From the NCBI GenBank assembly GCA_963668175.1, contig OY764159.1, positions 4,480,001 through 4,544,000 on the forward strand: a DNA stretch of 64,000 bases, written 5' to 3'. This DNA is from Syntrophales bacterium. GTDB lineage: Bacteria > Desulfobacterota > Syntrophia > Syntrophales > PHBD01. The notes beneath the pieces were generated by a model that saw only the letters and a list, made by a program, of their open reading frames with translations, ran no database searches and had not been told where the DNA came from. Position 1 is the first letter of the stretch. Each line of letters starts with the position of its first letter. Below, one piece after another: positions 39,177-63,565 of this stretch. The translations under genes and the position numbers were made by a program.

Positions 39177-39590
39177 GTGATTATTTACGAATTGCGCTGC
39201 AAAAACAAGCATCAGTTTGAGGGCTGGTTTCAAGACCGGAACGCCTTTGAGGAACAAAAATCGAAAAATCTCATCCTTTGCCCGGTGTGCGGTGATGCCG
39301 GAGTGGAGATTGTTCTGTCGTCGCTGACCGTCATGGGTAAGGATACACCCTCCTATGAGAAGTCCCCCAAAGGGATGTCGCCTGTCCAAACCTTGAATGC
39401 GCTGCATGACTTCATCAACAGGAATTTTGAGGATGTCGGTGACAAATTTGCCGATGTTGCCCTGAAAATACATCGCGGTGAGGAAGAACAGCGGAATATT
39501 AAAGGCACAACGACAAGGAACGAAGAAGAAGCGCTCGTTGAAGAGGGCATTCACTTCATTAAAATTCCCATCACCAAATTTAACAGCTGA
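39177..39590 (+). CDS. DUF1178 family Zn-ribbon protein
   Basis: MIIYELRCKNKHQFEGWF...CPVCG...FEDVGDKFADVALKIHRGE...IKG...LVEEGI. Confidence 0.88.
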   Translation: MIIYELRCKNKHQFEGWFQDRNAFEEQKSKNLILCPVCGDAGVEIVLSSLTVMGKDTPSYEKSPKGMSPVQTLNALHDFINRNFEDVGDKFADVALKIHRGEEEQRNIKGTTTRNEEEALVEEGIHFIKIPITKFNS

Positions 39591-39603: not shown

Positions 39604-41916
39604 ATGCAAGATTTCTTTACGGACATCACCAAAACCATTGGGAACTCGCCTCTTGTCGAAATCAAACGCCTAAATCAGAATAATAATGTAAAAATATTCG
39701 CGAAATTGGAGAGTTTCAACCCGGGAGGATCGATTAAAGACCGTGTTGCTTTCGCCATGATTGAAGGTGCGGAACGTCGCGGCGAACTGACCCGGGACAA
39801 AATCATCCTCGAAGCGACCAGCGGCAATACGGGGATCGGTTTGGCCTTTATCGCGGCAGCGAAGGGTTACAGGTTATGCCTGGCCATGTCGGAGGCTGCA
39901 AGCGAAGAGAGAAAGAAAATCCTGAAAGCCATGGGAGCGGAACTGCTTTTCACGCCGGCGAATCTCGGCACCGACGGCGCCATCGAGACGGTCTACAAAA
40001 TGCTCCGGGAACATCCGGATAAATATTACGGCACGGACCAGTTCAATAACGAAGACAACGTCCTGGCGCATTATCACGGTACGGGCGAGGAAATCTGGCG
40101 ACAGACGGGCGGCGCCGTGACGATGGTCGTCGCCACCCTTGGAACGACAGGAACGGCAATGGGCGTCTCAATGCGCCTCAAGGAGTACAATCCGGCCATT
40201 CGCATTATCGGCGTCGAGCCGTACCTGCAGCACAAGATCCAGGGGCTCAAGAACATGAAGGAATCTTACCGGCCGGGAATCTTCGACAAGAGCCGCCTCG
40301 ATGAAAAGATCAACATCCTCGATGAAGACGCCTTCGAGATGGCCAGGCGCCTGGCCCGGGAAGAGGGACTCCTGGTGGGGATGAGTTCAGGCGCAGCCAT
40401 GCACGTCGCGATTGAGAAGGCCAAAACCATGAGCGAAGGATTGGTGGTCGTCATCCTCCCGGACAGCGGCGAAAGATATCTAAGCACGGAGCTCTTCACG
40501 GATAAACAGGAAACGACGCTCCGGGTCTTCAATACGCTGACGAAAGAAAAAATGTTTTTCAAACCGATCAGCCCTGAGACCGTATTGATGCATTCGTGCG
40601 GACCCACCGTTCATGAGGTTCCGCATATCGGAAGTTACCGCCGTTTTGTCGTGTCCGATATGATCCAGCGGTATCTTGAATACAAGGGATACCAAGTGAA
40701 GCATGTCATGAATATCATCGATCTCGCCGACCGCGCCATCCGCGGCGCGGAGCGAGCCAACATGGAGATGGCGGCCTATTCGGAAAAATGCACTGCATCC
40801 TTCATGAACGGCATCGATAAACTGAACATCAAGCACGAAGAACCTTATCCCAAGGCGAGCGAGAATGTCGACGCCATGGTCCGTCTCACGGAGCGGCTGA
40901 TCGACAAAGGCTATGCCTATGAAAAACTGAGGTCCGTTTATTTCGATATCTCCAAACTAGATGATTACGGCGTATTGTCGAACATCGACCTCAAGAAAGT
41001 TAAACCGGGCAAGACCATCGACCAGGACGATTATGCCAAGGACAGTCCCGTCGATTTCACCCTCCTTAAAAGATCCACCCTGCAGGAACTGAAGAAGGGT
41101 GTTTATTTCACGACCCCGTGGGGGAGCGTCCGGCCCAGCTGGCATCTGGAATGTGCGGCTATCTCACTGAAATACCTCAATGAATCGTTCGACATTCATG
41201 CCAGCGGTTCCGACATCATTTTCCCCCATTGTGAAAATGTCATGGCAATCGGAAAAGCTGCGACAGGGAAGCAGATGGCCAATTACTGGCTCAACACGGA
41301 GCTCCTGATGATCGAGGGGAAGAAGATGTCGCGATCCCTGAACAACACCCTGACGATCGAGGAACTGGAAGCAAAGGGATACGCCGGCCGGGAGATCAGA
41401 TTTTTTCTTCTCAGCGCCCATTACCGAAAACCGCTGAATTTTTCCTTCGGAGCCCTGGCCTCGGCCAAGAACACCGTGACGAGACTCGATCGGTTCATCC
41501 AAAGGCTGATGTATTTCACCCCCGGCAGCGGTCATCCCGATACGGAACAGCTCATTTATGACCTCAAGCAGGGTTTTGCCCAGGCCATGGATGACGATTT
41601 CAACATGTCGGGGGCCTTGGCGTCGATTTTCGAATTCGTCAAGAAGGTGAATCTTCCGCTCTCCCAAGGCCAATTGACGGAAAAAGAGAGGGACCGCATC
41701 CTGGAGACGATGACCTCGATCGATAAGGTCCTTGGTGTTATGAACTTTGAAAAACAGATCATCGACAGCGCGACGCTGAAGCTCATCGAAGAGCGGGAAG
41801 CCTTGAGAAAGGACGGCCGCTGGGATGAGTCGGACGCCATCAGGAGAAAACTGGCAGAGATGGGGGTGGAGATTTCCGATACCCCGGAGGGCATGTTCTG
41901 GAGGTTGAAATCATGA
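39604..41916 (+). CDS. Cysteine synthase (PLP, CysK/CysM-like) fused to a cysteinyl-tRNA synthetase-like domain
   Basis: One 770-aa frame: KLESFNPGGSIKDR, EATSGNTG, PDSGERYLST, then from about 40513 VFNTLT...CGPTV...HIGS...RPSWHLEC...FPHCEN...KMSRS...AMDDDFN...SDAIRRKL. Confidence 0.92.
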   Translation: MQDFFTDITKTIGNSPLVEIKRLNQNNNVKIFAKLESFNPGGSIKDRVAFAMIEGAERRGELTRDKIILEATSGNTGIGLAFIAAAKGYRLCLAMSEAASEERKKILKAMGAELLFTPANLGTDGAIETVYKMLREHPDKYYGTDQFNNEDNVLAHYHGTGEEIWRQTGGAVTMVVATLGTTGTAMGVSMRLKEYNPAIRIIGVEPYLQHKIQGLKNMKESYRPGIFDKSRLDEKINILDEDAFEMARRLAREEGLLVGMSSGAAMHVAIEKAKTMSEGLVVVILPDSGERYLSTELFTDKQETTLRVFNTLTKEKMFFKPISPETVLMHSCGPTVHEVPHIGSYRRFVVSDMIQRYLEYKGYQVKHVMNIIDLADRAIRGAERANMEMAAYSEKCTASFMNGIDKLNIKHEEPYPKASENVDAMVRLTERLIDKGYAYEKLRSVYFDISKLDDYGVLSNIDLKKVKPGKTIDQDDYAKDSPVDFTLLKRSTLQELKKGVYFTTPWGSVRPSWHLECAAISLKYLNESFDIHASGSDIIFPHCENVMAIGKAATGKQMANYWLNTELLMIEGKKMSRSLNNTLTIEELEAKGYAGREIRFFLLSAHYRKPLNFSFGALASAKNTVTRLDRFIQRLMYFTPGSGHPDTEQLIYDLKQGFAQAMDDDFNMSGALASIFEFVKKVNLPLSQGQLTEKERDRILETMTSIDKVLGVMNFEKQIIDSATLKLIEEREALRKDGRWDESDAIRRKLAEMGVEISDTPEGMFWRLKS

Positions 41917-42740
41917 ATGGCGAGACAAGAAGATCGATCATTGCAGGTTCATGGTACCCCGGCAATCCCGATGTCTTGCGCGAAGACATTGAAGAGTATT
42001 TAAAAGAGGCATCATCAGGAGACATACAGGGCGAGATATTGGGCGTCGTAGCGCCCCACGCAGGCTACGTCTATTCAGGAGGCGTGGCCGCCTATGCCTA
42101 TAAACCCATCCGGGGCAAGCGATACGACACGGTCATCGTCATCAGCCCGTCGCACCGCATGGCCTTTCCGGGAGCCTCCATATACCGCCGGGGAGGCTAT
42201 GAGACGCCTTTGGGCATCGTACCCGTTGATGCGGAGATGTCGGACTTCCTTATCAATAACAGCACGATCATCAGCGATGCACCTGCGGCGCACATTCAGG
42301 AACATGCCCTCGAAATACAGCTGCCTTTCCTGCAGACCGTTCTCGGTCCATTCCTCCTTGTACCCATCATTATGGGCAGCCAGGATAGAAGGACCTGCGA
42401 ATCGCTTGCCAAATCGATAACGGAGGCCGCCGGCGATCAGCAGGTCTTGATCGTGGGCAGTTCCGACTTATCACACTTCCACGATTACCGCAGGGCGGTC
42501 AGTATCGATCAGACGGTGTTGCAGCATCTCGATAAGATGGATGCCGTCGGACTTCTGAACGATCTCAAGACGGGCCGCGGCGAGGCATGCGGCGGAGGAC
42601 CCGCCGCCGTCACCATGATGGCGGCAGGCATGCGGGGAGCGACCGAAGCGAAAGTGCTTAAATACGCGAATTCCGGCGATGTTACGGGGGACAGGGACCG
42701 GGTTGTCGGCTACGCCGCCGCCGTATTCTGGAAACCATAA
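41913..42740 (+). CDS. amrB: AmmeMemoRadiSam system protein B (MEMO1 family)
   Basis: AGSWYP, PHAGYVYSG, SPSH, EHALEIQLPFL, SSDLSHF, ACGGGP, YANSGDV, VVGYAA. ATGA overlap with the upstream fusion. Confidence 0.93.
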   Translation: MNGETRRSIIAGSWYPGNPDVLREDIEEYLKEASSGDIQGEILGVVAPHAGYVYSGGVAAYAYKPIRGKRYDTVIVISPSHRMAFPGASIYRRGGYETPLGIVPVDAEMSDFLINNSTIISDAPAAHIQEHALEIQLPFLQTVLGPFLLVPIIMGSQDRRTCESLAKSITEAAGDQQVLIVGSSDLSHFHDYRRAVSIDQTVLQHLDKMDAVGLLNDLKTGRGEACGGGPAAVTMMAAGMRGATEAKVLKYANSGDVTGDRDRVVGYAAAVFWKP

Positions 42741-42770
42741 AGCACAGTCTCAGGACAGATTGGGGGGCCT

Positions 42771-43322
42771 GTGAATCTGACGGAAAGCGAAAAAGAGCAT
42801 CTGCTCAACATAGCCAAAACCGCAGTGAAGACGCGGCTGGCCGGGAACGATACGCGGGAGAAGAAAACACCCGACATGCCCGTTTTGAAAGAAAAACGGG
42901 GGGCATTCGTCACCTTAAAGAAAAGAGGGCAGTTGCGCGGCTGCATCGGTTACATCCAGGCCGTTAAGCCCCTCGGACAAACCATAGATGAAATGGCCCA
43001 GGCGGCCGCATTCGGCGATCCGAGATTCCCGCCTGTGACGAAGGAGGAATTGCCCCTCCTGTCATTCGAGATTTCCGTCTTGACGCCGCTTAAGGAAATA
43101 GAAAATGTGGACGAAATCGAGGTAGGCGTCCACGGGATATATATCGTCAAGGGATTCCACTCCGGCCTGCTCCTTCCCCAAGTCGCAACGGAATACGGAT
43201 GGGACCGGAAGACCTTTCTCGAACATACCTGCTATAAGGCGGGACTTTCCCCCCGGGCGTGGCAGGATAAGGACGCAAAGATTTACATCTTTTCCGCGGA
43301 TATATTTTGTGATTCCGTATAG
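42771..43322 (+). CDS. amrA: AmmeMemoRadiSam system protein A (AMMECR1 family)
   Basis: GAFVTL...LRGCIG, AAAFGDPRF, EISVLTP, GLLLPQVA, KAGL. Confidence 0.94.
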   Translation: MNLTESEKEHLLNIAKTAVKTRLAGNDTREKKTPDMPVLKEKRGAFVTLKKRGQLRGCIGYIQAVKPLGQTIDEMAQAAAFGDPRFPPVTKEELPLLSFEISVLTPLKEIENVDEIEVGVHGIYIVKGFHSGLLLPQVATEYGWDRKTFLEHTCYKAGLSPRAWQDKDAKIYIFSADIFCDSV

Positions 43323-51716: not shown

Positions 51717-51946
51717 GTGCCTTCTTGCGCAAGACGAGTCCATATAGCACCGAAACATGCATACGGCATTTCGGGGGACTCCCCGCTAAATAAATCAAGA
51801 ATTTTCTTGAATTCTACGGTAATTTCACCTAATGATGAACGAGTGTTTTGCCCGCGCATGAATGCAACGGACATTTATCGAAGTTTTTCATCAAAGGCAA
51901 TACAAAGGTATATGGTATAAACCTCGATAATCATAGAGGGATTCAC

Positions 51947-53368
51947 ATGATCAATCCGGCTGTACCGCATAATATTAGCGATTACGTAGAGATTCTTCGG
52001 CGGCGCTTGTGGTTTATCTTCGTTCCGTTTGCTGCAATCATTTTGGGAACGGCCATATACGTTATTTTTGCTCCCAGGATCTACATGGCCTCCACCATGA
52101 TCTTGGTAAGCCCCCAAAAGGTTCCGGAAAGCTATATCCATCCCACTGTGACCACCAGTGTAGCGGAGCGGCTCCAATCCATAGCCCAGGAAGTGATGAG
52201 CCGTACACGCCTCGAGCAAGTCATAGCCGAACTCAATCTCTATAAGAGAGAAGCAAGGAGCCGTACCAAAGAAGAGGTTGTGGAACTGATGCGCAAGGAT
52301 ATCAGGGTTGAGCTTCCGAAAGGAAAAGAGGGCTATTTCTCCATCAGCTACATGACCGACGATCGTAACATGGCAGCCACGGTAGCCAATCGTCTCGCCT
52401 CCCTTTTCATTGAAGAAAACCTCAAGGTAAGAGAACAACAGGCCATGGGAACGACGGAGTTTCTGGCGACGGAGCTCAGCAACACCAAGGCCAAACTTGA
52501 TGAGATGGATAAGCAGATCCTGGAATATAAGCGGCAATACATGGGAGAGCTTCCGGAGCAAAGGGATTCCAATTTGAAAATATTCGAGCAGTACCAGGCC
52601 CAGAGTCTGAAAGTCGCTGAAAGCTTGAGAGCCGCTCAGGACAGAAAAATATTACTCCAGAAACAACTCTCGGACCTGGAAACGTCCGGCACGTTGTCCA
52701 CATCGGAGAATACGAAATCCGGGCGGAGCGGCGCCGTAGGGTCATACGAATCTGAAATTGCGAACCTGAAGAACACCCTCGAATCCCTCCAGGGAAAATA
52801 CACGGATAACCATCCGGATGTTATGGTGACCAAGAGAAAAATTGCCGATATGGAATCCAAGAGGACGGCACTCACCATTAAGAACGATCCGCGATACCGG
52901 GAAATACAGGGACAAATCGTTGCCACCGATCTGGAAATAAGACGATTGAAGCAGGAAGAGGCGGCGAACCAGGGACAGATGAGTAAATACAGGGCCAGGG
53001 TTGAAAATGCGCCTTTGAGAGAACAATCCATGGCTACCCTTATGAGGGAATACCAGAACACCAAACTGGCTTATGACGCCCTTTTGCAGAAAAGCCAGGG
53101 GGCTCAGCAGGCAGAAAATCTGGAGCGACGCCAGAAAGGGGAGCAATTCAAGGTGATCGACCCAGCTCGCGTCCCGGAAAAGCCCTTCTCGCCGAATATA
53201 CCTAAAATTTTACTTATGGGCCTTATGGCCGCCATAGGGGGTGGAATAGGTCTTGCTTTGCTCCGGGAGCAGATGGACCGTTCCTTCCGTGATGCCGAGG
53301 ACGTGGAAATGACTTTAGGGGTCAAGGTCCTCGCCAATATCCCAAAAATCGAATCGAAAGTAGCATAG
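51947..53368 (+). CDS. Polysaccharide chain-length determinant (Wzz/Wzc N-terminal, GumC family)
   Basis: Two TMs, coiled coils, KYTDNHPDV, FKVIDPARVPEKPFSPN. Confidence 0.9.
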   Translation: MINPAVPHNISDYVEILRRRLWFIFVPFAAIILGTAIYVIFAPRIYMASTMILVSPQKVPESYIHPTVTTSVAERLQSIAQEVMSRTRLEQVIAELNLYKREARSRTKEEVVELMRKDIRVELPKGKEGYFSISYMTDDRNMAATVANRLASLFIEENLKVREQQAMGTTEFLATELSNTKAKLDEMDKQILEYKRQYMGELPEQRDSNLKIFEQYQAQSLKVAESLRAAQDRKILLQKQLSDLETSGTLSTSENTKSGRSGAVGSYESEIANLKNTLESLQGKYTDNHPDVMVTKRKIADMESKRTALTIKNDPRYREIQGQIVATDLEIRRLKQEEAANQGQMSKYRARVENAPLREQSMATLMREYQNTKLAYDALLQKSQGAQQAENLERRQKGEQFKVIDPARVPEKPFSPNIPKILLMGLMAAIGGGIGLALLREQMDRSFRDAEDVEMTLGVKVLANIPKIESKVA

Positions 53369-53374
53369 ACTGCT

Positions 53375-54289
53375 GTGTACAGAAAATTCTTCGGCCTTAA
53401 AGACAAACCCTTTGAGATCACGCCGGACCCGCGTTTTCTTTATCGGAGCGACATTCATAAAGAAGCGCTGGCGAACTTGAAATATGCCGTCAGGGAAGGT
53501 AAAGGTTTTACGGTAGTCACAGGTGAAGTGGGAACGGGAAAAACCACGCTGATCCATTCTCTGCTCAGCACACTTGACGGTAATGTCCGCACCGCTTATA
53601 TCTTCAATCCCAATCTCCGGCCGACGGACTTTTTGAACTACATCTGCGACGACCTGGGACTGAAATCGGAAGAACTGCGCTCCCGGGGGCAGAGTCTGAC
53701 GATGCTACATAACTTTCTCCTGGAATGTTACGAAAAGAACGAGAAAGTATACCTCATCATTGATGAGGCACAGAGTCTCAGCCCGAAACTCCTTGAGGAA
53801 GTTCGTCTTCTCACGAATTTGGAAACGGCCAAGAGTAAACTTCTCCATCTGATTCTGATGGGTCAGCCGGAACTCGATAATATGCTTGCCGACCCGGGGT
53901 TACGCCAACTTAAGCAGAGAATCACGATCCGGCATCGCATAACCCCTCTCGACGAAAGAGATACCAGAGATTACATCCTTCACCGCCTTAAGATTGCCGG
54001 AGCGAAACATATTAATATCTTCGATGAAGGGGCGATTAAAGAGATATATCGTTATTCATCAGGGATACCGCGGTTAATCAATATCGTGTGCGACAACGCT
54101 CTTATCACCGGATTTTCCCGGGAAGAGAAGAGAATCACAAGGTCGATAATCAAGGAAGTCATCAGGGACCTGGAAGGACCTTCTTACACCCGCAAGTTTG
54201 TGTTTAACTGGAAGATCGCATTGTTATTGGCCCTTATTGTCGTATTGGTCATTGTGACCTTGGATTATTTCATATTAAATACAAAATAG
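53375..54289 (+). CDS. ExeA-family AAA ATPase (PEP-CTERM locus type)
   Basis: FFGLKDKPFEITPDPRF, GEVGTGKTT, IIDEAQ, LMGQPEL, GIPRLINIVCD. Confidence 0.92.
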   Translation: MYRKFFGLKDKPFEITPDPRFLYRSDIHKEALANLKYAVREGKGFTVVTGEVGTGKTTLIHSLLSTLDGNVRTAYIFNPNLRPTDFLNYICDDLGLKSEELRSRGQSLTMLHNFLLECYEKNEKVYLIIDEAQSLSPKLLEEVRLLTNLETAKSKLLHLILMGQPELDNMLADPGLRQLKQRITIRHRITPLDERDTRDYILHRLKIAGAKHINIFDEGAIKEIYRYSSGIPRLINIVCDNALITGFSREEKRITRSIIKEVIRDLEGPSYTRKFVFNWKIALLLALIVVLVIVTLDYFILNTK

Positions 54290-54304
54290 GATGGTGTCGG
54301 ACAC

Positions 54305-55201
54305 ATGGGCAAGATGTTCGAAGCGCTACAAAAGGTCGAAAGGGATAAGGTTAGGGAGTCGGAACCTGATGTTCCTGAAACCGCTCCGGACCAAATGGTT
54401 CTGGACGAAAACATGGTTTCTTACTTCCTGCCTGAATCAGTCGCCTCGGAGCAGTTCAAGAAGCTTAGAACCCACCTATTCAAAGAGAGCATTCATTCCA
54501 AAGAGATACCGCGAACCATTCTTGTGACCAGTACGACAAGCGGGGAGGGGAAAACTTTTGTGGCCATCAACCTGGCGATCACACTGGCAACAGACTTGCA
54601 GAAGTATGCCCTCCTGGTCGATTGTGATCTTCGCAATCCATCCTTTTCCCGCTGGTTCGGCCTCTCGGACCGGAAGGGTCTTTCCAACTATTTGCAGGGA
54701 GAAAGCGATATCTCGGAACTCCTCATCAAGACCAACATAGACAAATTGACCCTCTTTTGCGGCGGACCGGCCAATCAGGATAACCCGGTGGAGTTAATCG
54801 GTTCGAAGCAAATGGAATCTCTGGTCAGTGAATTGAATGCCCGTTACCCGGACCGCTATATCATCATCGATTCGCCTCCTTTGCTGGCCACAACGGAACC
54901 AACCGTCCTGATGAAGATGGTCGATGCCATCCTGTTCGTCGTACGGGCAGGACAAACACCTCGCGATTCAATCCTGCAGGCCATAAAAGGAATCGACAAG
55001 AAGAAGATCATCGGCGTCGTGCTGAACGACATTGAATTTAAGACATCATCGCTGAATTCGAGATACTTCGGTTCCCGGGACGGATATTACGGGTATTATT
55101 CAAAAATGCGAAAGCCTCAGCCGAAAGGCTGGAAGAAATGGATTGCCGTACCGCGTTTTTTCAGAAAGAAACACTTCAGACCAGGTGAAAATGTCAAATA
55201 A
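54305..55201 (+). CDS. BY-kinase, polysaccharide tyrosine autokinase (CpsD/CapB)
   Basis: SGEGKT, LVDCDLRNP, IIDSPP, C-terminal Tyr cluster RYFGSRDGYYGYY. Confidence 0.92.
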   Translation: MGKMFEALQKVERDKVRESEPDVPETAPDQMVLDENMVSYFLPESVASEQFKKLRTHLFKESIHSKEIPRTILVTSTTSGEGKTFVAINLAITLATDLQKYALLVDCDLRNPSFSRWFGLSDRKGLSNYLQGESDISELLIKTNIDKLTLFCGGPANQDNPVELIGSKQMESLVSELNARYPDRYIIIDSPPLLATTEPTVLMKMVDAILFVVRAGQTPRDSILQAIKGIDKKKIIGVVLNDIEFKTSSLNSRYFGSRDGYYGYYSKMRKPQPKGWKKWIAVPRFFRKKHFRPGENVK

Positions 55202-56588
55202 GACGAGGCTTTATCTCGACGTCCGGGCATTTTTTTATATCAGCCTGGAGGCCCTGCTGATGATCGGGATTCTTATCTTCAGCATCTACATACGTCGTGG
55301 CGGTTTGTTATTTTCTATCATCGGCGATGAAAGCTTTATCTTGAAAGTGGCTGTTTTCATCACCTTGATCCTCGTTCCGCTTTACTTGTTGAGTCTTTAT
55401 GAAGAAAGAATTGCTCCGGGTCATGTACTTGAATTGTCCGGCTGGCGATTTTTACAGGCCCTTGTCATTGCAGCCTTCCTTCTATCGTTTATCTATTTCC
55501 TTCATCCGTTCCTGGCCTTCGAAAGAGACGTTTTCCTGACCAGCTTTCTCTTGATCGGTTTATCGTCTCTTGCTATCAGATTGGTTTACCAGAAGATTCT
55601 CACCATCCAACACGTAGCCAAGAATGTTCTCGTCATTGGATGCGGAACATTGGCAGGCGAGATTACACAGGAAATAGAAAACCAAAAAAACATCGGCTAC
55701 AATTTGGTGGGATTCATAACCAACGAACCGGATCGCGTTGGAAATCTGGTGTATAACAAACCCATTCTGGGCGATCCGTCGCAAATCATGGAAATCGTCA
55801 AAGACAAGAAAATCGATCAGATTATTGTCGCGCTCGATGAAAGGAGGGGGGGATTTCCCCTCATGCAACTTCTTGAGTGCAAAGTCCAGGGGCTAATCAT
55901 CAAACCCGGCGTTGAATTCTATGAACGCCTCACCGGCAGACTGAAGATCAAGCACTTGGTCCCCAGTACCATGATCTTTTCGAAAGGATTTAAAAAATCC
56001 GCTCTGCAACTTGCACTCAAGAGGTTTACAGAACTCATCATGTCGATCTGTGGCCTGATCATCCTGGCCCCTCTTATGTTGATCATTGCTCTTATCATTA
56101 AGCTGGAGTCTCGTGGACCGGTATTTTACCGTCAGGAAAGAGTGGGGGAATACGGAAAATGTTTCGAATTGATCAAGTTCCGTTCGATGTATACTGATGC
56201 GGAGGCAAACGGCCCGGTCTGGGCAAAGGAAAACGATAAAAGAGTGACGCGGGTCGGGAAATGGCTGAGGAAATTGCGTCTTGATGAAATACCGCAGATG
56301 ATCAATGTCATAAAGGGGAATATGTCATTTGTAGGTCCCAGGCCCGAACGTCCTCACTTTGTGAACATCCTGCGCAGGGAAATCCCTTTCTACGATCAAC
56401 GTTTATCCGTGAAACCGGGCATCACCGGGTGGGCCCAAATCATGTATGTATATGCCGGTTCCAAAGAAGAAACCTTGGAGAAAATGACCTACGATTTGTT
56501 CTATATTAAGAATATGTCATTATTTCTCGATTTCTATATCATTTACAAAACGATCATGGTCGTGTTTTTTGGAAAAGGGGCAAGATAA
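55191..56588 (+). CDS. Priming polyprenyl glycosylphosphotransferase (sugar transferase)
   Basis: N-terminal TMs; GPVFYRQERVG, KFRSM, LDEIPQ, GPRPERP, VKPGITGWAQ. Confidence 0.94.
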   Translation: MSNKTRLYLDVRAFFYISLEALLMIGILIFSIYIRRGGLLFSIIGDESFILKVAVFITLILVPLYLLSLYEERIAPGHVLELSGWRFLQALVIAAFLLSFIYFLHPFLAFERDVFLTSFLLIGLSSLAIRLVYQKILTIQHVAKNVLVIGCGTLAGEITQEIENQKNIGYNLVGFITNEPDRVGNLVYNKPILGDPSQIMEIVKDKKIDQIIVALDERRGGFPLMQLLECKVQGLIIKPGVEFYERLTGRLKIKHLVPSTMIFSKGFKKSALQLALKRFTELIMSICGLIILAPLMLIIALIIKLESRGPVFYRQERVGEYGKCFELIKFRSMYTDAEANGPVWAKENDKRVTRVGKWLRKLRLDEIPQMINVIKGNMSFVGPRPERPHFVNILRREIPFYDQRLSVKPGITGWAQIMYVYAGSKEETLEKMTYDLFYIKNMSLFLDFYIIYKTIMVVFFGKGAR

Positions 56589-56969
56589 GGCCCATAAGCA
56601 AATACGGAACAAGACTTCCTGCTGGAATTGTCGTATAATGATTCCGGAAGAGAGTGTGAGGGGGATTTTGAGTAATCGTCCCTATAATGGAATCACATAT
56701 TCCATGTTCATCTAGATTTGTTTGGATATCGATTCCCAGCGTCCGGAAGCTGCGGGGATGGCCGTACACACGCCCATAGATGAGGGAAAGGCGGATACAA
56801 GTCTTTCCAAGGGCTTTAGAATTATAAAGCTTTTTTTGCCATCAAAAGTCCTGAAGACACGACAGGACCTGTCGGTTGCATGGATATATGTAATCGAGAG
56901 GGCGTGAGCTTGTCATTTCCTGGGGTCTGGCTGTACGTATCGATTCCCGATCTCGAATAAAATATACCC

Positions 56970-57893
56970 ATGAAGAACAGGATTAATGCCCTTACCATCG
57001 ATGTCGAAGACTACTTCCAGGTTCAGGCCTTTTCGGCAGTTTCCAAATATGAAACCTGGGGGCATTATGAAGTACGCGTCGAAAAGAACACCTTCAATCT
57101 TTTGAACATTCTGGATGGAGTGCCTTCACACGACCCGGCAAATGGATCGACGATTCCCTGCAAAGCCACGTTCTTTGTCCTCGGATGGATCGCGGAGAGA
57201 TACCCACATATCGTAAAAGCTATTAAAGCCGCCGGTCATGAAATAGCAAGCCACGGTTATGCCCACCAGGTTATATACAACCAGACGAAGGATGAGTTCA
57301 GAACAGATATCCGGCGCGCCAAGGCTGTACTTCAGGATATTACGGGAGAAGAAATTATAGGATACCGAGCGCCCAGCTATTCGATAACGCCTAAGACACT
57401 TTGGGCTTTGGAAATTCTCATAGAAGAAGGATTTCATTACGACTCAAGCATCTTTCCCGTATATCACGATATTTACGGAATGCCCGATGCCCCGCGCTTC
57501 CCGTTTGCCGTCCGCATCGATGAAAAGAGAAAGATTGAATTCGCACCTATAACGGCTGAAACGAAACGTACCGCCATGCTGGAATTCCCCATATCAACCG
57601 TAAAGATCCTCGGAACGAACATCCCTGTGGCGGGAGGCGGTTACTTCCGCCTATTCCCCTATCACCTCATTAAATACGGATTGAAACGGATCAACGAAGT
57701 CGACCAACAGCCTTTTATCTTCTACCTTCATCCCTGGGAGTGCGACCCGGAGCAGCCCAAAATAGATGGAGCGGGATTACGTTCCCAATTTCGCCATCGA
57801 ATCAACTTGAGCAAAACGCAACGTCGTTTTCAAAAGTTACTGGATGATTTCCAGTTCACAACCGTTCGGGACATGTTGACCAATCATATTTGA
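56970..57893 (+). CDS. Polysaccharide deacetylase (XrtA-system type, DUF3473)
   Basis: TIDVEDYFQV, HEIASHGYAH, GYRAPSYS, YDSSIFP, GGGYFRL, YLHPWE. Confidence 0.93.
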   Translation: MKNRINALTIDVEDYFQVQAFSAVSKYETWGHYEVRVEKNTFNLLNILDGVPSHDPANGSTIPCKATFFVLGWIAERYPHIVKAIKAAGHEIASHGYAHQVIYNQTKDEFRTDIRRAKAVLQDITGEEIIGYRAPSYSITPKTLWALEILIEEGFHYDSSIFPVYHDIYGMPDAPRFPFAVRIDEKRKIEFAPITAETKRTAMLEFPISTVKILGTNIPVAGGGYFRLFPYHLIKYGLKRINEVDQQPFIFYLHPWECDPEQPKIDGAGLRSQFRHRINLSKTQRRFQKLLDDFQFTTVRDMLTNHI

Positions 57894-57910
57894 AAGGTAT
57901 CCGGATTCCC

Positions 57911-58765
57911 ATGAATGATCTTCTGTTCAAAGATAAGAAGCTTGCCGGTATCGGCGCCGCTGCCTTTGTTCTCTTCATCTTGACTTTTTATCCCGTCTTT
58001 CAATCCCTTATCGGTAGATGGTACAACGATGAAGATTATTCGCACGGGTTCCTGATCATTCCGATATCCCTGTATATCGTATGGGAAAAGAGGCATTTGC
58101 TGGCTCAAGTATTCCGGCGGCCTTCCCAATGGGGTCTCGTTTTCATTATGATATCCCTGTTGATCTATATCCTTGCGCAAATAGCAGAAGTCGTCTCCCT
58201 GGCCTCCGTTTCCATGATCCTGCTCCTCGCGTCTGCGGTCATTTATCTTCAAGGATTTCCTATGTTAAGGGCACTTGGCTTTCCTTTAGCATTTCTTCTC
58301 TTTATGATACCGGTTCCGGCACAGATCTATTCGGCGTTGACGATCAACCTTCAACTTTTCGTCACTCAAGCCAGCGCCTGGATTTCTCCGCTTCTGGGTA
58401 TATCTCTTTATCATGAAGGGAATGTGATTTATTTGCCTCACCGCACGCTTCAAGTCGTCAACGCCTGCAGCGGTATGAGATCGATTATTTCTTTGCTTGC
58501 CATGAGTTCCATCGTCGCCTATTTCTACCTGCAATCGAATCCGCTTCGCTGGATACTATTTTTCCTGGGTATACCAATAGCTGTTATTACGAATATCATT
58601 CGCGTTATCAGTCTGATTGTGGCTTTTCAATATTTCAATACGGACCTGACGGCCGGCACGGCCCATACAGTGCTCGGTTTGGTCATTTTTGCACTGGCTT
58701 TGGCTTTGACGATCTTAGGCATGGAGGTACTGAAAATTTGGGAAAAGAAACTCAAAAAAAGTTAA
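57911..58765 (+). CDS. Exosortase (EpsH family)
   Basis: Multi-TM; YSHGFLI; catalytic Cys (VNACSGMRS), Arg (NIIRV) and His (AHTVLG). Start 57890 or 57911. Confidence 0.92.
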   Translation: MNDLLFKDKKLAGIGAAAFVLFILTFYPVFQSLIGRWYNDEDYSHGFLIIPISLYIVWEKRHLLAQVFRRPSQWGLVFIMISLLIYILAQIAEVVSLASVSMILLLASAVIYLQGFPMLRALGFPLAFLLFMIPVPAQIYSALTINLQLFVTQASAWISPLLGISLYHEGNVIYLPHRTLQVVNACSGMRSIISLLAMSSIVAYFYLQSNPLRWILFFLGIPIAVITNIIRVISLIVAFQYFNTDLTAGTAHTVLGLVIFALALALTILGMEVLKIWEKKLKKS

Positions 58766-59385
58766 TTATCCTAATCGTATGCCTGTTGGCAGCCCTCGCG
58801 TGCATTTATGGACTGCCCACTTCCGAACCTCACCGCAAAAATGTCAGGCTCAACGATATCTTGGCGAACGTGGGAGGATGGAATCCGGGTGCGCCTATTG
58901 ATATCGAACCGGCGATTGTCAAGGTCCTGAATCTTGACGATTATTTGAACCGTTACTATTTTCGGGAGAAAGAAAACGTATCTCTATACATCGGATACTA
59001 TCTTACAAAAAGCAAGATAGGAGCCGCTCATGATCCGATGGTTTGTTTTCCCGGACAGGGATTCATACTGTCTAGTGTCAATAAAGGGACATATCAACTC
59101 CCCACCAGCCGCGAGACCATCACCTATTCCCTCATGACAGCGCAACGGAATCAAAAAAAGGACCTCATCATTTACTGGTTTCAGTCATTCGATCAGACCA
59201 ACGAAGACACGTTCCGCCAGAAAGTCAATCTCCTTTTGCAGCAGATCAAGACGCGCCGGGAAGATAACGCCTTTGTAAGAATTACCGTGTCCCTGGACAA
59301 CAGGACACAGCAGGAAGGTTTGAAACTGGGCCTTGATTTCATTGACGCCTTCTACCCTCGCTTTCTCGAATACGTCAGGATGTAA
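58738..59385 (+). CDS. EpsI family exosortase-associated protein
   Basis: LNLDDYLNRYY, SLYIGYY, HDPMVCFPGQG, IIYWFQ, AFVRI; follows the exosortase. Confidence 0.88.
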   Translation: MGKETQKKLIILIVCLLAALACIYGLPTSEPHRKNVRLNDILANVGGWNPGAPIDIEPAIVKVLNLDDYLNRYYFREKENVSLYIGYYLTKSKIGAAHDPMVCFPGQGFILSSVNKGTYQLPTSRETITYSLMTAQRNQKKDLIIYWFQSFDQTNEDTFRQKVNLLLQQIKTRREDNAFVRITVSLDNRTQQEGLKLGLDFIDAFYPRFLEYVRM

Positions 59386-59394
59386 TTCTTACCA

Positions 59395-60609
59395 ATGTTG
59401 CTCATTGCCGGCATTTTTTATCTATCCATATTCATTCTTTTCTATATTTACGCGGGATATCCGTTTCTTGTGTTCATCATATCCATGATCAGAAGCAAGC
59501 CCGTAAAGAAAGACCGATCCCTGCCTCACGTTACAATTCTTATCGCCGCATATAACGAAGAAAACGTCATTGAGGCGACGGTTAAAAACAAGCTGAAGCT
59601 CAATTATCCTGCCGACAAGCTGGAGATTATCGTCATTTCCGACGGTTCCGACGACCGAACGGATCAAATCGTTCAGGCCCTTATCCCTTCATTGCAGATA
59701 ACAGAGACTGGCAGAGAAACACCTGCGGAAGGTAGACAAACGGCAATGCCCACGCCTTCAGTGAGACTCCTCCGCCAGAAACCAAGGTCGGGCAAAACTT
59801 CGGCACTAAATATGGCTGTACCGCATGCAAAGGGTGAAATCATCGTTTTTTCAGACGCCAACTCGATCTATGATCCGGAGGCCTTGGTATACCTGGTTCA
59901 AAACTTTCATGATCCGACTGTCGGCTACGTAACAGGTAAGATGATATACACAAACCCCCAGGGAAGCATTATAGGGGATGGCTGCTCTACGTACATGAAA
60001 TATGAAAACACCCTGCGTAGCCTGGAGTCCGAAATCGGCTCTATCGTGGGCGTTGATGGCGGCATCGACGCTATGAGAAAGACGTTGTATAAACCCATGA
60101 ATCCGGACCAGCTTCCGGATTTCGTTCAGCCTCTGAAAGTCGTAGAACAGGGTTACAGGGTGGTTTATGAACCTGCCGCACTATTGAAGGAGCCTGCACT
60201 TACTTCTATGAAGGACGAATATCGCATGCGGGTGAGGGTTTCGCTTCGCGCCATATGGGCACTTCATGATATGAAGCACCTTTTCAACCCGGGACGATTT
60301 GGACTCTTCTCGTGGGAACTTTTGTCTCATAAATGGCTTCGCTACACAGCTTTTTTGTATCTCATCACGGCCTTTGTTTCCAATCTTCTATTATTGAACG
60401 AGCATCCTTTTTTTCGCATCCTGATGATTCTGCAGGCTCTATTCTATCTGGCGGCACTATTGTCCTTCATCCTGGAGAAAAAGGATCTCCATGTAAAAGT
60501 TTTTTATATCCCGTATTATTTCTCGTTAATTAACCTGGCTTCCGCCCGGGCTTTTTTGAAATTTATGATGGGCGAAAAACAGGTCATCTGGACACCGAGG
60601 AAGGGATAG
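59395..60609 (+). CDS. Glycosyltransferase family 2 (membrane-bound)
   Basis: IAAYNEE, SDGSDD, GKTSALN, FSDAN, EYRMRVR, SHKWLR. Confidence 0.92.
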   Translation: MLLIAGIFYLSIFILFYIYAGYPFLVFIISMIRSKPVKKDRSLPHVTILIAAYNEENVIEATVKNKLKLNYPADKLEIIVISDGSDDRTDQIVQALIPSLQITETGRETPAEGRQTAMPTPSVRLLRQKPRSGKTSALNMAVPHAKGEIIVFSDANSIYDPEALVYLVQNFHDPTVGYVTGKMIYTNPQGSIIGDGCSTYMKYENTLRSLESEIGSIVGVDGGIDAMRKTLYKPMNPDQLPDFVQPLKVVEQGYRVVYEPAALLKEPALTSMKDEYRMRVRVSLRAIWALHDMKHLFNPGRFGLFSWELLSHKWLRYTAFLYLITAFVSNLLLLNEHPFFRILMILQALFYLAALLSFILEKKDLHVKVFYIPYYFSLINLASARAFLKFMMGEKQVIWTPRKG

Positions 60610-60647
60610 CGACAGAAACGGGATATGCCGGGATATTATGGGATAGC

Positions 60648-61220
60648 ATGCGTTTCAGTGAATATCGATACCTGGTTAAAAGCGATTTATACCGATATAA
60701 TGCAAGGAAAGATACCGCGGTATTCATCCGCAATCTTTGTTTCAATCCCGGCTTTAAATATACGTTCTGGATGAGGTCTGCAAAGTATTTCCGTAAGAAG
60801 AAAACTTTTCTTTTTTTTTATATATTAGCCAGGCTGTTTCTCCATCATTACAAGTTCAAATACGGTATCAGCATCCCATACGACACACGCATCGGCGCCG
60901 GTTTTTATATCGGTCACTTCGGCGGCATCGTTGTCAATCCTGAGGCCGTCATAGGCAGCAATTGCAACATAAATCAGGACGTATCCATCGGCGCGACCTA
61001 TGGAGGACGCACCCCGGGGGTTCCCTCCATCGGAGATAACGTCTATATGGGACCAGGATCAAAGATCATCGGGGGCATTCGCATCGGCGACGATGCAGCC
61101 ATCGGCGCCAACTGTGTTGTCAACAAATCCATCGAAGACCATTCAGTGGCGGTGGGCAATCCGTTTCAAATCGTTTCTCATGAAGGCGCTTCGCGCTACG
61201 TTATCAACACGGACTATTGA
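60648..61220 (+). CDS. Serine acetyltransferase-like hexapeptide O-acetyltransferase
   Basis: IGAGFYIGHFGGIVVN, IGDNVYMGPGSKIIG, IGANCVV, VAVGNP. Confidence 0.88.
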   Translation: MRFSEYRYLVKSDLYRYNARKDTAVFIRNLCFNPGFKYTFWMRSAKYFRKKKTFLFFYILARLFLHHYKFKYGISIPYDTRIGAGFYIGHFGGIVVNPEAVIGSNCNINQDVSIGATYGGRTPGVPSIGDNVYMGPGSKIIGGIRIGDDAAIGANCVVNKSIEDHSVAVGNPFQIVSHEGASRYVINTDY

Positions 61221-61260
61221 TCCATGCATTTACGTGCCATTGGCATAAACAAGAGGAGAT

Positions 61261-62289
61261 ATGAAAGCCGTTCTCTTTAAATCCAAAGAACGTTTCGCTG
61301 CATTCGAGGAGAAATTGAGGATTTACGGCATCGAACTTGCCGTTCTCGATTTCGAGGATCATCGATGGCTCGATTTCAAATACGACGACATCGATTTCAT
61401 CATCTATTACCCGTCGTTTAAGTTTTCATCCAACCATCCATTGGCTTTGCAGGAAGTTTACGACAATCTGACATTCCTTCACGATGCGTATCCGAATATC
61501 ATCATGTTCCCGGATATCAACGGAATCAAATATTACAACGATAAATACAGACAGTATCTTTATCTGCATCATCATGGGTACCCGACGCCCCGCACGATTC
61601 CTTTACTATCCGAGAAATCCATCGATTTCGCAGAAAAGCAACTCGGATATCCCATGGTGGTCAAGAATCGATATGGTGCCGGGGGAGGATCCGTCTTTCG
61701 CATCGACAGCCGGGAAGCATTGATCAAGTATTACAAGATTTCCAAACTGGACTTGTTTAATCCAGGCTCCCTCCTCTATTTTGCCGGTATGTTGAGCGAA
61801 CGGCTCTTTTACTGGGAACTGATCAAAGCCAGGAAAGCGAGATACCCGTTCCTTTCGGCACCGCTACTGGCGCAGGAATTCATCCATCACGACCGGGATT
61901 TGAAAACCGTCGTCGGCTACAATAAGGTTGTGGAGGCCCACTGGCGATTCAAAGCCGACGCAGCCATGTGGAAGGTCAATATCGATGGCGGCGGTATCGG
62001 CGTTTGGGGACACGTACCACAGGAAGCCCTCGATTTATCGACCAGACTGGCCAGCGATCTTAAAATCAGCTGGCTTAACCTCGACATTATCAAGGGCAAC
62101 GGCCAGTTTCTCATTACGGAGTTTTCTCCGGTATGGCATCACTACGCCTACCGGGAAAAAGAGAGTTTTGTGTATAAGGACGATTACAATATCGAAATGC
62201 CGCTCGAGATATCGCTCGATCTGGAAAGGATCATCGTGGAATCCATGATACGAGCAGCCAAGGAAAGGAAGAACAGCACCGGCGTCTAG
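61261..62289 (+). CDS. ATP-grasp ligase (RimK-like)
   Basis: NDKYRQY, PTPRT, YPMVVKNRYGAGGGSV, LAQEFI, WKVNIDGGG, LDII...ITEFSP. Confidence 0.82.
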   Translation: MKAVLFKSKERFAAFEEKLRIYGIELAVLDFEDHRWLDFKYDDIDFIIYYPSFKFSSNHPLALQEVYDNLTFLHDAYPNIIMFPDINGIKYYNDKYRQYLYLHHHGYPTPRTIPLLSEKSIDFAEKQLGYPMVVKNRYGAGGGSVFRIDSREALIKYYKISKLDLFNPGSLLYFAGMLSERLFYWELIKARKARYPFLSAPLLAQEFIHHDRDLKTVVGYNKVVEAHWRFKADAAMWKVNIDGGGIGVWGHVPQEALDLSTRLASDLKISWLNLDIIKGNGQFLITEFSPVWHHYAYREKESFVYKDDYNIEMPLEISLDLERIIVESMIRAAKERKNSTGV

Positions 62290-62302
62290 CCGGTCAACAA
62301 CC

Positions 62303-63565
62303 ATGAGCCGTCGTTTATTGAAAATCATGTGTGTCGTGGGGGCGCGTCCCAATTTCATGAAAGTTGCCCCGATCATCAATGCCATCGAACAATGGAATCG
62401 CGATGCCTCCGTTCAGCAGGAAAAGAGCCTGCAATGCATCCTTGTACATACGGGGCAGCATTACGACACTGCGATGTCTAAACAGTTCTTCGACGAACTG
62501 GAGATCCCAAGGCCCGACGTCAATCTTGAGGTTGGATCCCTGTCCCACGCCGAGCAGACGGCGGAAATCATGAAGCGTTTCGAACCGGTACTAGTGAAGG
62601 AGCAGCCCGATTGCGTCGTGGTTGTCGGCGATGTCAATTCGACTGTCGCCTGCGCCCTTGTGTGCGCGAAAATACAATACCATGCAGGTAACCGGATTCG
62701 CCCTTTGATTGTTCATGTCGAAGCAGGACTTCGCAGTTTTGATCGAGACATGCCGGAAGAGGTGAATCGAGTCTTGACCGACGCGATCTCGGACGTCCTC
62801 TTTACAACAGAAGAGGGTGCAACGGAAAATTTGAAACGGGAAGGCGTTTCCGAACAGAAAATCCATTTCGTGGGAAATGTCATGATCGACACCCTCCAGC
62901 ATCATCGCAAGAAAGCGGAGCAGTCGACCATCCTGAAAGAACTGGGGTTGGACGACCCGATAACGACGGATACGACAACGGGGAGCAGTCATGCGACTGA
63001 GAAAAAACCTTACGCCATTCTGACATTGCACCGCCCCTCCAATGTCGATGACAAAGGTATATTTTCCGATATCCTGGACGCGGTCATGACCTTGAAAGAC
63101 CGATTGCGGATTATCTACCCGATCCATCCGAGATCTCTGGGCCGGATTAAAGCATTCGGGCTTGACTCCTCTTTCGATTGGAGATCCTATCCTTCTTCCG
63201 AATCTCTTCAAGCCGCAGGAACTAAAAACAATGCAGAATCCATTCTGGCCATTCCTCCTCTTGGATACATCGATTTCCTGCATCTGATGGCCAATGCAAG
63301 CCTCGTATTCACAGATTCCGGCGGAATACAGGAAGAGACTACCATTCTTGGCGTCCCCTGTATCACGTTACGGGAAAACACAGAAAGACCGATTACCGTG
63401 ACCAAGGGAACGAACATTATCGCCGGAACAAATAAAGACAAGATTATCGAAACTACTTTGAGCCAAATGCGGGCTACTTCAAAAAACCATCAACAACAGA
63501 TACCGCCGTTATGGGACGGCCATGCCGCCCGAAGGATCGTCGATATCCTGGCTGACTTGTTGTGA
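62303..63565 (+). CDS. wecB: UDP-N-acetylglucosamine 2-epimerase (non-hydrolysing)
   Basis: GARPNFMK, HTGQHYD, VGDVNST, HVEAGLRS, MPEEVNR, TDSGGIQEE, WDGHAA. Confidence 0.95.
   Translation: MSRRLLKIMCVVGARPNFMKVAPIINAIEQWNRDASVQQEKSLQCILVHTGQHYDTAMSKQFFDELEIPRPDVNLEVGSLSHAEQTAEIMKRFEPVLVKEQPDCVVVVGDVNSTVACALVCAKIQYHAGNRIRPLIVHVEAGLRSFDRDMPEEVNRVLTDAISDVLFTTEEGATENLKREGVSEQKIHFVGNVMIDTLQHHRKKAEQSTILKELGLDDPITTDTTTGSSHATEKKPYAILTLHRPSNVDDKGIFSDILDAVMTLKDRLRIIYPIHPRSLGRIKAFGLDSSFDWRSYPSSESLQAAGTKNNAESILAIPPLGYIDFLHLMANASLVFTDSGGIQEETTILGVPCITLRENTERPITVTKGTNIIAGTNKDKIIETTLSQMRATSKNHQQQIPPLWDGHAARRIVDILADLL

Follow-up and report, generated by a model that had tools for sequence, protein, structure and literature searches.

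A cysteine synthase fused to a cysteinyl-tRNA synthetase paralogue in Syntrophales: a candidate tRNA-Cys/cysteine-binding module on a biosynthetic enzyme

HisZ acts as the regulatory subunit of the ATP phosphoribosyltransferase HisG and is not known to carry an anticodon-binding domain. It is a paralogue of histidyl-tRNA synthetase (HisRS) that takes part in histidine biosynthesis, as described in the accessible part of PMC7373986. MshC, the cysteine ligase of mycothiol synthesis (TIGR03447; 3c8z, 8hfm), is a paralogue of cysteinyl-tRNA synthetase (CysRS), also with a non-translational role, and the SepRS-SepCysS system links a cysteine-making, pyridoxal 5'-phosphate (PLP)-dependent enzyme with a synthetase body that recognises tRNA-Cys (available text of PMC8762117). 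The gene considered here lies in a 64,000-nucleotide stretch of the genome of a Syntrophales bacterium (contig OY764159.1; the window, hereafter) and encodes a 770-residue protein in which a CysM-type cysteine synthase is followed by a CysRS-like module. We propose with moderate confidence, from conservation and by analogy with HisZ, that the module binds tRNA-Cys, and probably cysteine too, and that it would serve the fused synthase, which may work independently of serine acetyltransferase (SAT), as an inbuilt sensor, regulator or tether, coupling it to the state of tRNA-Cys; its logic on the synthase would then be like that of HisZ on HisG. A full-text literature search found no paper on a CysK/CysM-CysRS fusion, and the available portions of PMC1779556, PMC2922099, PMC8762117 and PMC5388404 mention none.

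In both HisZ-HisG and the fusion, a synthetase paralogue coexists with the genuine synthetase and is linked physically to an enzyme that produces the same amino acid, and the catalytic motifs are dispensable in most members. The two differ in that coupling here is by gene fusion, that the coupled enzyme catalyses the last step rather than the first, and that regulation is in the present case a prediction. Unlike HisZ, the module has kept its anticodon-binding domain, which suggests that a tRNA is sensed and not just an amino acid. MshC is more distant: its solved chains (413-414 amino acids) lack the anticodon domain and cover just residues 3-328 of the module when aligned, and the module, with this domain present, reaches 183 bits on TIGR03447 (cut-off 485.1), so that membership of the MshC family was rejected. 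The likeness to SepRS-SepCysS extends to the tRNA, as the single tRNA-Cys of the genome carries the same identity elements (anticodon GCA, U73); however, the PLP enzyme of the fusion belongs to the CysK/CysM family and not to the SepCysS family.

Architecture of the fusion protein

The open reading frame begins with an ATG at 39604 and its stop codon ends at 41916. Position 40513 corresponds to residue 304, and 40513-41916 thus holds the C-terminal 467 residues and the stop codon; the synthase and the CysRS-like module are joined with almost no linker (Table 1). The synthase half scores 364.5 bits on TIGR01136 cysKM (cut-off 344.15) and falls below the cysM equivalog cut-off (363.5 vs 394.2 bits). 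Its closest solved structures are CysM, or O-acetylserine sulfhydrylase B, of E. coli and Salmonella (2bhs, 2jc3 and 2v03; 257 bits), with which it shares the PLP lysine, the TSGNTG loop and the phosphate loop, all invariant in the family; in a 51-row family alignment K45, TSGNTG, GTxGT and the MSSGA serine loop do not vary. The fusion differs from CysM in carrying the 467-residue CysRS-like extension.

The module itself reaches 399.5 bits on TIGR00435 cysS (NCBIfam, cut-off 340), or 401.3 bits when scored from the genome DNA, and its best match in the PDB is the CysRS 8qhp (330 bits), with E. coli CysRS 1li5 at 283 bits. It has the same fold as canonical CysRS (TIGR00435; 8qhp, 1li5/1li7/1u0b) and the same domain order of Rossmann plus CP, DALR_2 and CysS_C. 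It departs from the canonical enzymes in being fused behind a cysteine synthase, in never being the sole cysS of a genome, in the replacement of 16 near-invariant positions, and in forming a separate clade of which most members are without HIGH and KMSKS. Two features that define a CysS in working order are lacking in the module, namely an intact zinc/Thr pocket and a housekeeping role. Database entries call Syntrophales members 'cysteine--tRNA ligase' and Desulfovibrio members 'cysteine synthase', and neither name fits the protein.

When the two halves were folded as separate chains, the pair scored 0.45 and the best of three controls 0.00, with runs agreeing in at least 85% of contacts and a partner pLDDT of at least 85. 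In the calibration, 116 of 157 solved complexes came up to that mark, as did 2 of 215 mismatched pairs, but just 18 of the 157 complexes, together with both passing mismatches, did so with a score of 0.60 or under. Folding of this kind gives weak support to a predicted interface between the halves.

Conservation of the pocket, the ATP site and the anticodon domain

Departures from canonical CysRS were judged against 101 representatives obtained from a search of 1.84 billion cluster representatives, among which 55 columns are near-invariant (at least 95% conserved). The module retains 39 of these, including the equivalents of C28, W205, C209 and H234 of the E. coli enzyme, and alters 16: Y330H, Y337H, T372I, W488L, W502F, G509V, G512S, S518A, M520I, G526N, G534S, H543C, E546V, Q549I, H564N and K577R. 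Four of the replaced residues (T372, G512, G534 and E546) are invariant in the canonical set (101/101), six (H543, K577, W488, G509, H564 and Y330) occur in 100/101, and Y337 in 97/101; in E. coli numbering T372I is T68I, H543C is H235C and E546V is E238V. Nine motif substitutions had been listed in an earlier note on this DNA by comparison with E. coli CysRS, and all nine appear in the HMMER alignment to 1li5 and again in a comparison with the genome's own canonical CysRS; the positions it gave for HIGS, HCENV and KMSRS (40624, 41227 and 41323, the first letters of residues 341, 542 and 574) are exact. The 16 altered columns are true departures, but several of the listed changes fall where canonical CysRS itself varies: D in TVYD, the leading G in HGGG, and M in WMH. 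At the fourth position of HIGH, 71 of the 101 canonical sequences have N and 30 have H, compared to S in the fusion, so that HIGS is a mild change, canonical enzymes being mostly HIGN. The first His and the third-position Gly of HIGH are retained, and the second lysine of KMSKS, K in 100/101 canonical sequences, is R in the module.

The pocket is changed in part. Residues C28, C209, H234 and E238 of E. coli CysRS, the zinc ligands, and the invariant T68 together make up the canonical zinc/cysteine pocket. C332, C517 and H542 are the equivalents of C28, C209 and H234, and retention of the Cys/Cys/His ligands, as the earlier note had it, holds; the pocket is nevertheless not intact, E238 being replaced by V546 and T68 by I372. 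The zinc ion of CysRS selects the thiol, according to the accessible part of PMC7373986. The C-terminal tail was also correctly read as retained, both DALR_2 and CysS_C being recognised by Pfam, and the anticodon-domain residues R731, D744, R747 and D759 are present in the module.

Random decay does not account for these replacements. A homologue search of 5.8 billion proteins yielded, among the matches listed, 120 full-length proteins of 752-803 amino acids and 69-98% identity, with Syntrophus, Syntrophales or Deltaproteobacteria as sources, which together with the query make a Syntrophales-type set of 121 sequences. The new residues C543, R577 and I549 are each found in 121/121, L488 in 120/121, H337 in 119/121, V546 in 118/121 and H330 in 115/121, and 46% of the columns of the catalytic domain are at least 95% conserved, compared to 52% in the CysK half. 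The motifs had been called eroded, and alignment of fusion homologues had been proposed as a check; with nearly all substitutions fixed across the 121 sequences, the pattern is one of purifying selection rather than of random loss. By these alignments, the Syntrophales-type module is nearly as constrained as the synthase half, and its pocket has been rebuilt, with Glu and Thr lost and Cys and two His gained, and then frozen. That the module is a decaying relic, once a CysRS and now a functionless passenger on a useful cysteine synthase, is close to refuted by such conservation, given also the full-length module in 121 of 301 sampled genomes and the invariance of three anticodon-domain residues described below. 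Repeated loss of catalytic motifs within the family and a truncated copy in one closed genome would fit a relic, which we hold to be extremely improbable all the same.

The wider family was defined by searching 301 genomes of the phylum for matches to a Desulfovibrio ferrophilus member (P0128, annotated 'cysteine synthase'). A full-length fusion was found in 121/301 genomes, 116 of the 284 of high quality and 78 of 199 genera, always as a single copy. In a FastTree phylogeny of 120 CysRS domains, 11 of 12 fusion representatives and seven 'solo' rows, several of which are fragments or come from clusters with full fusions, form one clade (SH-like support 99); an IQ-TREE phylogeny of 52 family members, with two canonical enzymes as the root, supports the family with an SH-aLRT of 99 and the Syntrophales branch with 100. 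The 52 rows consist of the 30 best P0128 matches, 14 regions picked for a high cysS score or a closed genome, and eight database proteins. In closed genome G132 (G132:C1:2736763-2739059) the fusion frame ends at 704 amino acids and the rest of the CysRS-like part runs on in a frame interrupted by a TGA; this copy may be a pseudogene, or reflect a frameshift or a sequencing error. The twelfth fusion representative, a 768-residue protein (P0124) encoded by a Nanoarchaeota metagenome-assembled genome, is an independent cysteine synthase-CysRS fusion with fully canonical motifs and branches inside canonical CysRS.

Across the 52 members, the PLP lysine (K45) and N75 of the asparagine loop are both conserved in 52/52, as are R731, D744 and D759 of the anticodon domain, with R747 in 51/52 and R735 in 49/52. 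In the 1li5 alignment these five anticodon-domain positions map to R423, D436, D451, R439 and R427 of E. coli CysRS, a region that we take to be the anticodon reader in the tRNA complex. Conservation is graded within the pocket, from the equivalents of H234 (51/52) and W205 (50/52) to those of C209 (40/52), C28 (34/52), E238 (33/52) and T68 (25/52), all four zinc ligands being present together in 25/52. At the ATP site, the first His of HIGH is kept in 21/52, and HIGH-like and KMSKS-like motifs occur together in only 12/52; one or both have been lost in 40/52, the Syntrophales branch retaining both. The tree requires at least four changes of the ATP motifs and at least seven of the zinc set, while basal members retain T68, all four zinc ligands, HLG[LVI] and KMSRS. 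Part of the cysteine/zinc pocket is preserved across the family and the ATP-activation motifs are not. Since family-wide selection keeps the synthase chemistry and the anticodon reader and releases the ATP site, the module most likely has as its common function the binding, on behalf of the fused synthase, of tRNA-Cys and, in many members, of cysteine too.

Some of the same observations would suit a working second CysRS, that is, a bifunctional enzyme channelling fresh cysteine to tRNA-Cys by means of a KMSRS loop and of a zinc site in variant form, with Cys543 added to Cys, Cys and His. The module scores over the TIGR00435 cut-off and comprises every domain of CysRS, the anticodon domain among them; H-x-G and KMSRS do not vary in the 121 sequences, and the basal members retain the residues named above. 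Other class I synthetases function with non-HIGH and non-KMSKS variants, and the Nanoarchaeota protein is an independent example of CysK fused to a fully canonical CysRS. We consider this function rather unlikely. T68, G204, E238 and the G226-equivalent G534, each found in 101/101 canonical enzymes, are altered, as are H235 and the second KMSKS lysine (100/101). Moreover, the 40 of 52 relatives without intact ATP motifs still carry the fusion, so that its selective value does not rest on aminoacylation.

A new chemistry is a further explanation, whereby the module would spend ATP on activating a substrate different from free cysteine, be it O-phosphoserine, S-sulfocysteine, cysteine persulfide or some other thiol, or would in the manner of MshC ligate cysteine to an acceptor that is not a tRNA, possibly with a different metal centre in the rebuilt pocket. 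The fused enzymes are closest to E. coli CysM, which accepts thiosulfate. In Syntrophales the ATP motifs were fixed while pocket residues were replaced and then fixed in turn, with loss of the acidic ligand (E546V) and gain of C543, H330 and H337 near C332, C517 and H542; E. coli CysRS is itself reported to form cysteine persulfide in a PLP-dependent reaction (review, PMC10655014, in its available part). However, the MshC model fails (183 vs 485 bits), the retained anticodon domain points to tRNA-Cys as ligand, no gene of a thiol-cofactor pathway is found among the neighbours, and it is only in the Syntrophales branch that the pocket is changed in this way, other branches losing the ATP site instead. 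A new chemistry is improbable in our judgement. A changed substrate may still apply to the Syntrophales branch, where H-x-G and KMSRS are fixed and the cysteine/zinc pocket is rebuilt.

Cysteine synthesis and tRNA-Cys in fusion-bearing genomes

The earlier note had left room for this gene being the only cysS of its genome, which is not so: the 4.57-Mb single-contig genome has a separate canonical cysS (G000:C1:1234064-1235521; 555 bits) with every canonical motif, and the cell's cysteinyl-tRNA synthetase is not the fused paralogue. A third CysRS-like gene, which encodes 405 amino acids (L003:1498-2712; G000:C1:3596790-3598001), lies outside the window, between a MATE-type transporter gene and a lipoprotein gene. 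It has no anticodon domain, keeps HIGN and KMSKS intact, has Asp, Asn and Ser at the equivalents of C209, H206 and E238, and scores 286.5 bits on cysS (cut-off 340) and 159 on MshC (cut-off 485); several genomes of the order have three or four cysS-like matches. A second tRNA-Cys, or a tRNA-Sec-like tRNA-Cys, that might serve the fused paralogue was sought with ARAGORN, which found one tRNA-Cys(GCA) and one tRNA-Sec among 51 tRNA and tmRNA genes. A SepRS/SepCysS partner was also rejected, the best scores in the genome (22.8 bits on TIGR00470 and 29.6 bits on TIGR02539) being far under the cut-offs, and SepRS was found in none of 30 other fusion-bearing genomes.

Those 30 genomes, picked for contiguity and spread, represent 21 families and have a completeness of 96% or more. 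All of them (30/30) possess a canonical solo cysS, which a frameshift splits in one genome. At the level of the order, a cysS match was found in 120/121 genomes; of five apparent exceptions, four are explained by a contig-end fragment or a frameshift, and the fifth, a genome 90% complete, gave no match. Retention of canonical cysS in every genome examined means that translation is independent of the module, which also counts against a second CysRS. Of the functions named in the earlier note (a changed substrate, an MshC-like ligase, or a sensor of cysteine or tRNA), the sensor fits best, with anticodon residues invariant in 52/52, catalytic motifs mostly lost and cysS coexisting in 30/30, and the ligase finds no support.

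The fusion is the sole cysKM-family match (E ≤ 1e-40) in 14/30 genomes, five of them closed. A gene resembling SAT (150-171 bits, short of the cysE cut-off) occurs in exactly 14/30, namely those with a strong solo cysK, usually adjoining it, and in 0/16 of the others, which include all 14 genomes where the fusion is the only CysK/M homologue. The Syntrophales genome studied here belongs to the first kind, its solo cysK (452 bits) and a SAT-like gene lying about 4 kb apart. As a control, 20 genomes without the fusion were inspected: a solo CysK/M homologue was present in 19/20 and a SAT-like gene in 13/20, and five of those lacking SAT have no module, their complement being limited to a canonical cysS plus one solo enzyme of the CysM-like kind. 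A SAT-independent, CysM-type route is thus widespread in the phylum, and it is to this route that the CysRS-like module has been added. With no SAT-like gene in 16/30, the acceptor in SAT-less fusion genomes is probably not O-acetylserine; O-phosphoserine is the obvious candidate substrate of the synthase, and such genomes may otherwise have a non-homologous serine acyltransferase.

The same data could be read as tRNA-dependent cysteine synthesis on a single polypeptide, without SepRS or SepCysS, in which the remodelled module of the Syntrophales branch, taken to be ATP-competent, would load or hold tRNA-Cys with a serine-derived precursor (e.g., O-phosphoserine) and the PLP domain would convert the tRNA-bound residue to cysteine; the pocket of this branch is without its acidic zinc ligand and has a cysteine and two histidines more. 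SAT independence in about half of the genomes, the kept anticodon reader and the ATP motifs kept in Syntrophales are all consistent with it; branches with dead ATP sites could not make cysteine this way, and we regard the idea as very unlikely.

Several points weigh against a module that only binds tRNA-Cys and cysteine. H341, G343 and the whole of KMSRS are invariant across the 121 Syntrophales-type sequences and drift freely in other branches of the family, which argues that ATP chemistry is still used in Syntrophales; the module of this branch may still bind ATP, and 'sensor only' may be wrong for it. The module also lies above the curated cysS cut-off and retains 39 of 55 near-invariant positions. 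The five SAT-less genomes that use a solo CysM-like enzyme argue that the module is unnecessary for the SAT-independent route, and no conserved partner gene indicates a pathway. Finally, the 52 family rows were gathered by similarity to one query and by our own picks, and are a non-random sample. Binding of tRNA by the module, and its regulatory effect on the synthase, are what we infer from conservation and phyletic pattern.

The locus, its neighbours and the place of the family

Table 1. Features of the fusion gene and adjoining genes, in window coordinates (aa, amino acids; nt, nucleotides; ORF, open reading frame)
Feature	Coordinates	Strand	Basis or remarks
Whole fusion ORF, 770 aa (P0001): CysM-type cysteine synthase + CysRS paralogue	39604..41916	+	Pfam, NCBIfam
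PLP-dependent cysteine synthase domain, residues 8-287	39625..40464	+	Pfam PALP 233.9 bits; TIGR01136 cysKM
PLP lysine K45	39736-39738	+	TSGNTG and GTTGT loops intact in same domain
CysRS-like module, residues 304-770	40513..41913	+	TIGR00435; PDB matches
Class I catalytic (Rossmann plus CP) domain, residues 319-622	40558..41469	+	Pfam tRNA-synt_1e 294.5 bits
C332, aligned to E. coli C28	40597..40599	+	Alignments to 1li5, own cysS and canonical set
HIGS (HIGH motif); H341 and G343 fixed in Syntrophales type, fourth position S or N	40624..40635	+	Alignments
I372 replacing canonical threonine (T 101/101)	40717..40719	+	I in 89, V in 32 of 121 Syntrophales-type sequences
VRPSWHLEC (canonical GRPGWHIEC); W513, H514, C517 retained, G509V and G512S altered	41128..41154	+	Alignments
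HCENV (canonical HHENE); H542 retained, H543C (121/121), glutamate to V546 (118/121)	41227..41241	+	
KMSRS (canonical KMSKS); R577 fixed 121/121	41323..41337	+	Alignments
DALR_2 helical domain, residues 658-713	41575..41742	+	Pfam 40.2 bits, cut-off 22
CysS_C anticodon-binding domain, residues 726-767	41779..41904	+	Pfam 30.8 bits, cut-off 23; aligns to E. coli 419-461
DUF1178 gene	39177..39590	+	Pfam DUF1178 137.8 bits; stop 13 nt upstream of fusion ATG
AmmeMemoRadiSam system proteins B (41913-42740) and A (42771-43322)	41913..43322	+	First ATG overlaps fusion stop (ATGA)

Gene order around the fusion is constant in 79 Syntrophales loci (rpoZ-pyrF-SpoU methylase-PilC-DUF1178-fusion), DUF1178 adjoining the fusion in 78/79 and the remaining locus having no upstream DNA. 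DUF1178 was rejected as a functional partner, being beside the fusion in 0/30 distant loci, and the arrangement is one of order-level synteny. Similarly, Memo/AMMECR1 genes follow the fusion in 44/79 Syntrophales loci, and were rejected as partners, since no fewer than 15 loci with over 4 kb of DNA downstream lack them, as do the 30 distant loci. No gene recurs as a neighbour across those 30 loci, where only lineage-specific groups of 3-6 loci share neighbours, so the fusion is a self-contained unit.

Elsewhere in the window, no radical-SAM partner adjoins AmmeMemoRadiSam proteins B and A, and genes for GAPDH, TPI and SecG come next. An exopolysaccharide/exosortase cluster occupies 51848-63565, with a GC content of 0.43-0.50 compared to 0.51-0.58 upstream, and includes genes for Wzz/GNVR, AAA ATPases, a sugar transferase, a polysaccharide deacetylase, the exosortase EpsH, DUF3485, a GT2 glycosyltransferase, a hexapeptide transferase and UDP-GlcNAc 2-epimerase.

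The fusion thus represents a large, single-copy and strongly conserved family in sulfate reducers and syntrophs, and in many of their genomes it is the only recognisable cysteine synthase, without a serine acetyltransferase. The family is a natural series in which one synthetase body has lost its ATP site, its zinc site or both, depending on the lineage, and it makes the role of a non-charging synthetase scaffold directly testable. If the module does sense tRNA-Cys or cysteine, it would be a bacterial tRNA reader, derived from an aminoacyl-tRNA synthetase, wired directly to an amino-acid biosynthetic enzyme, following a logic related to that of HisZ but with the anticodon domain retained.

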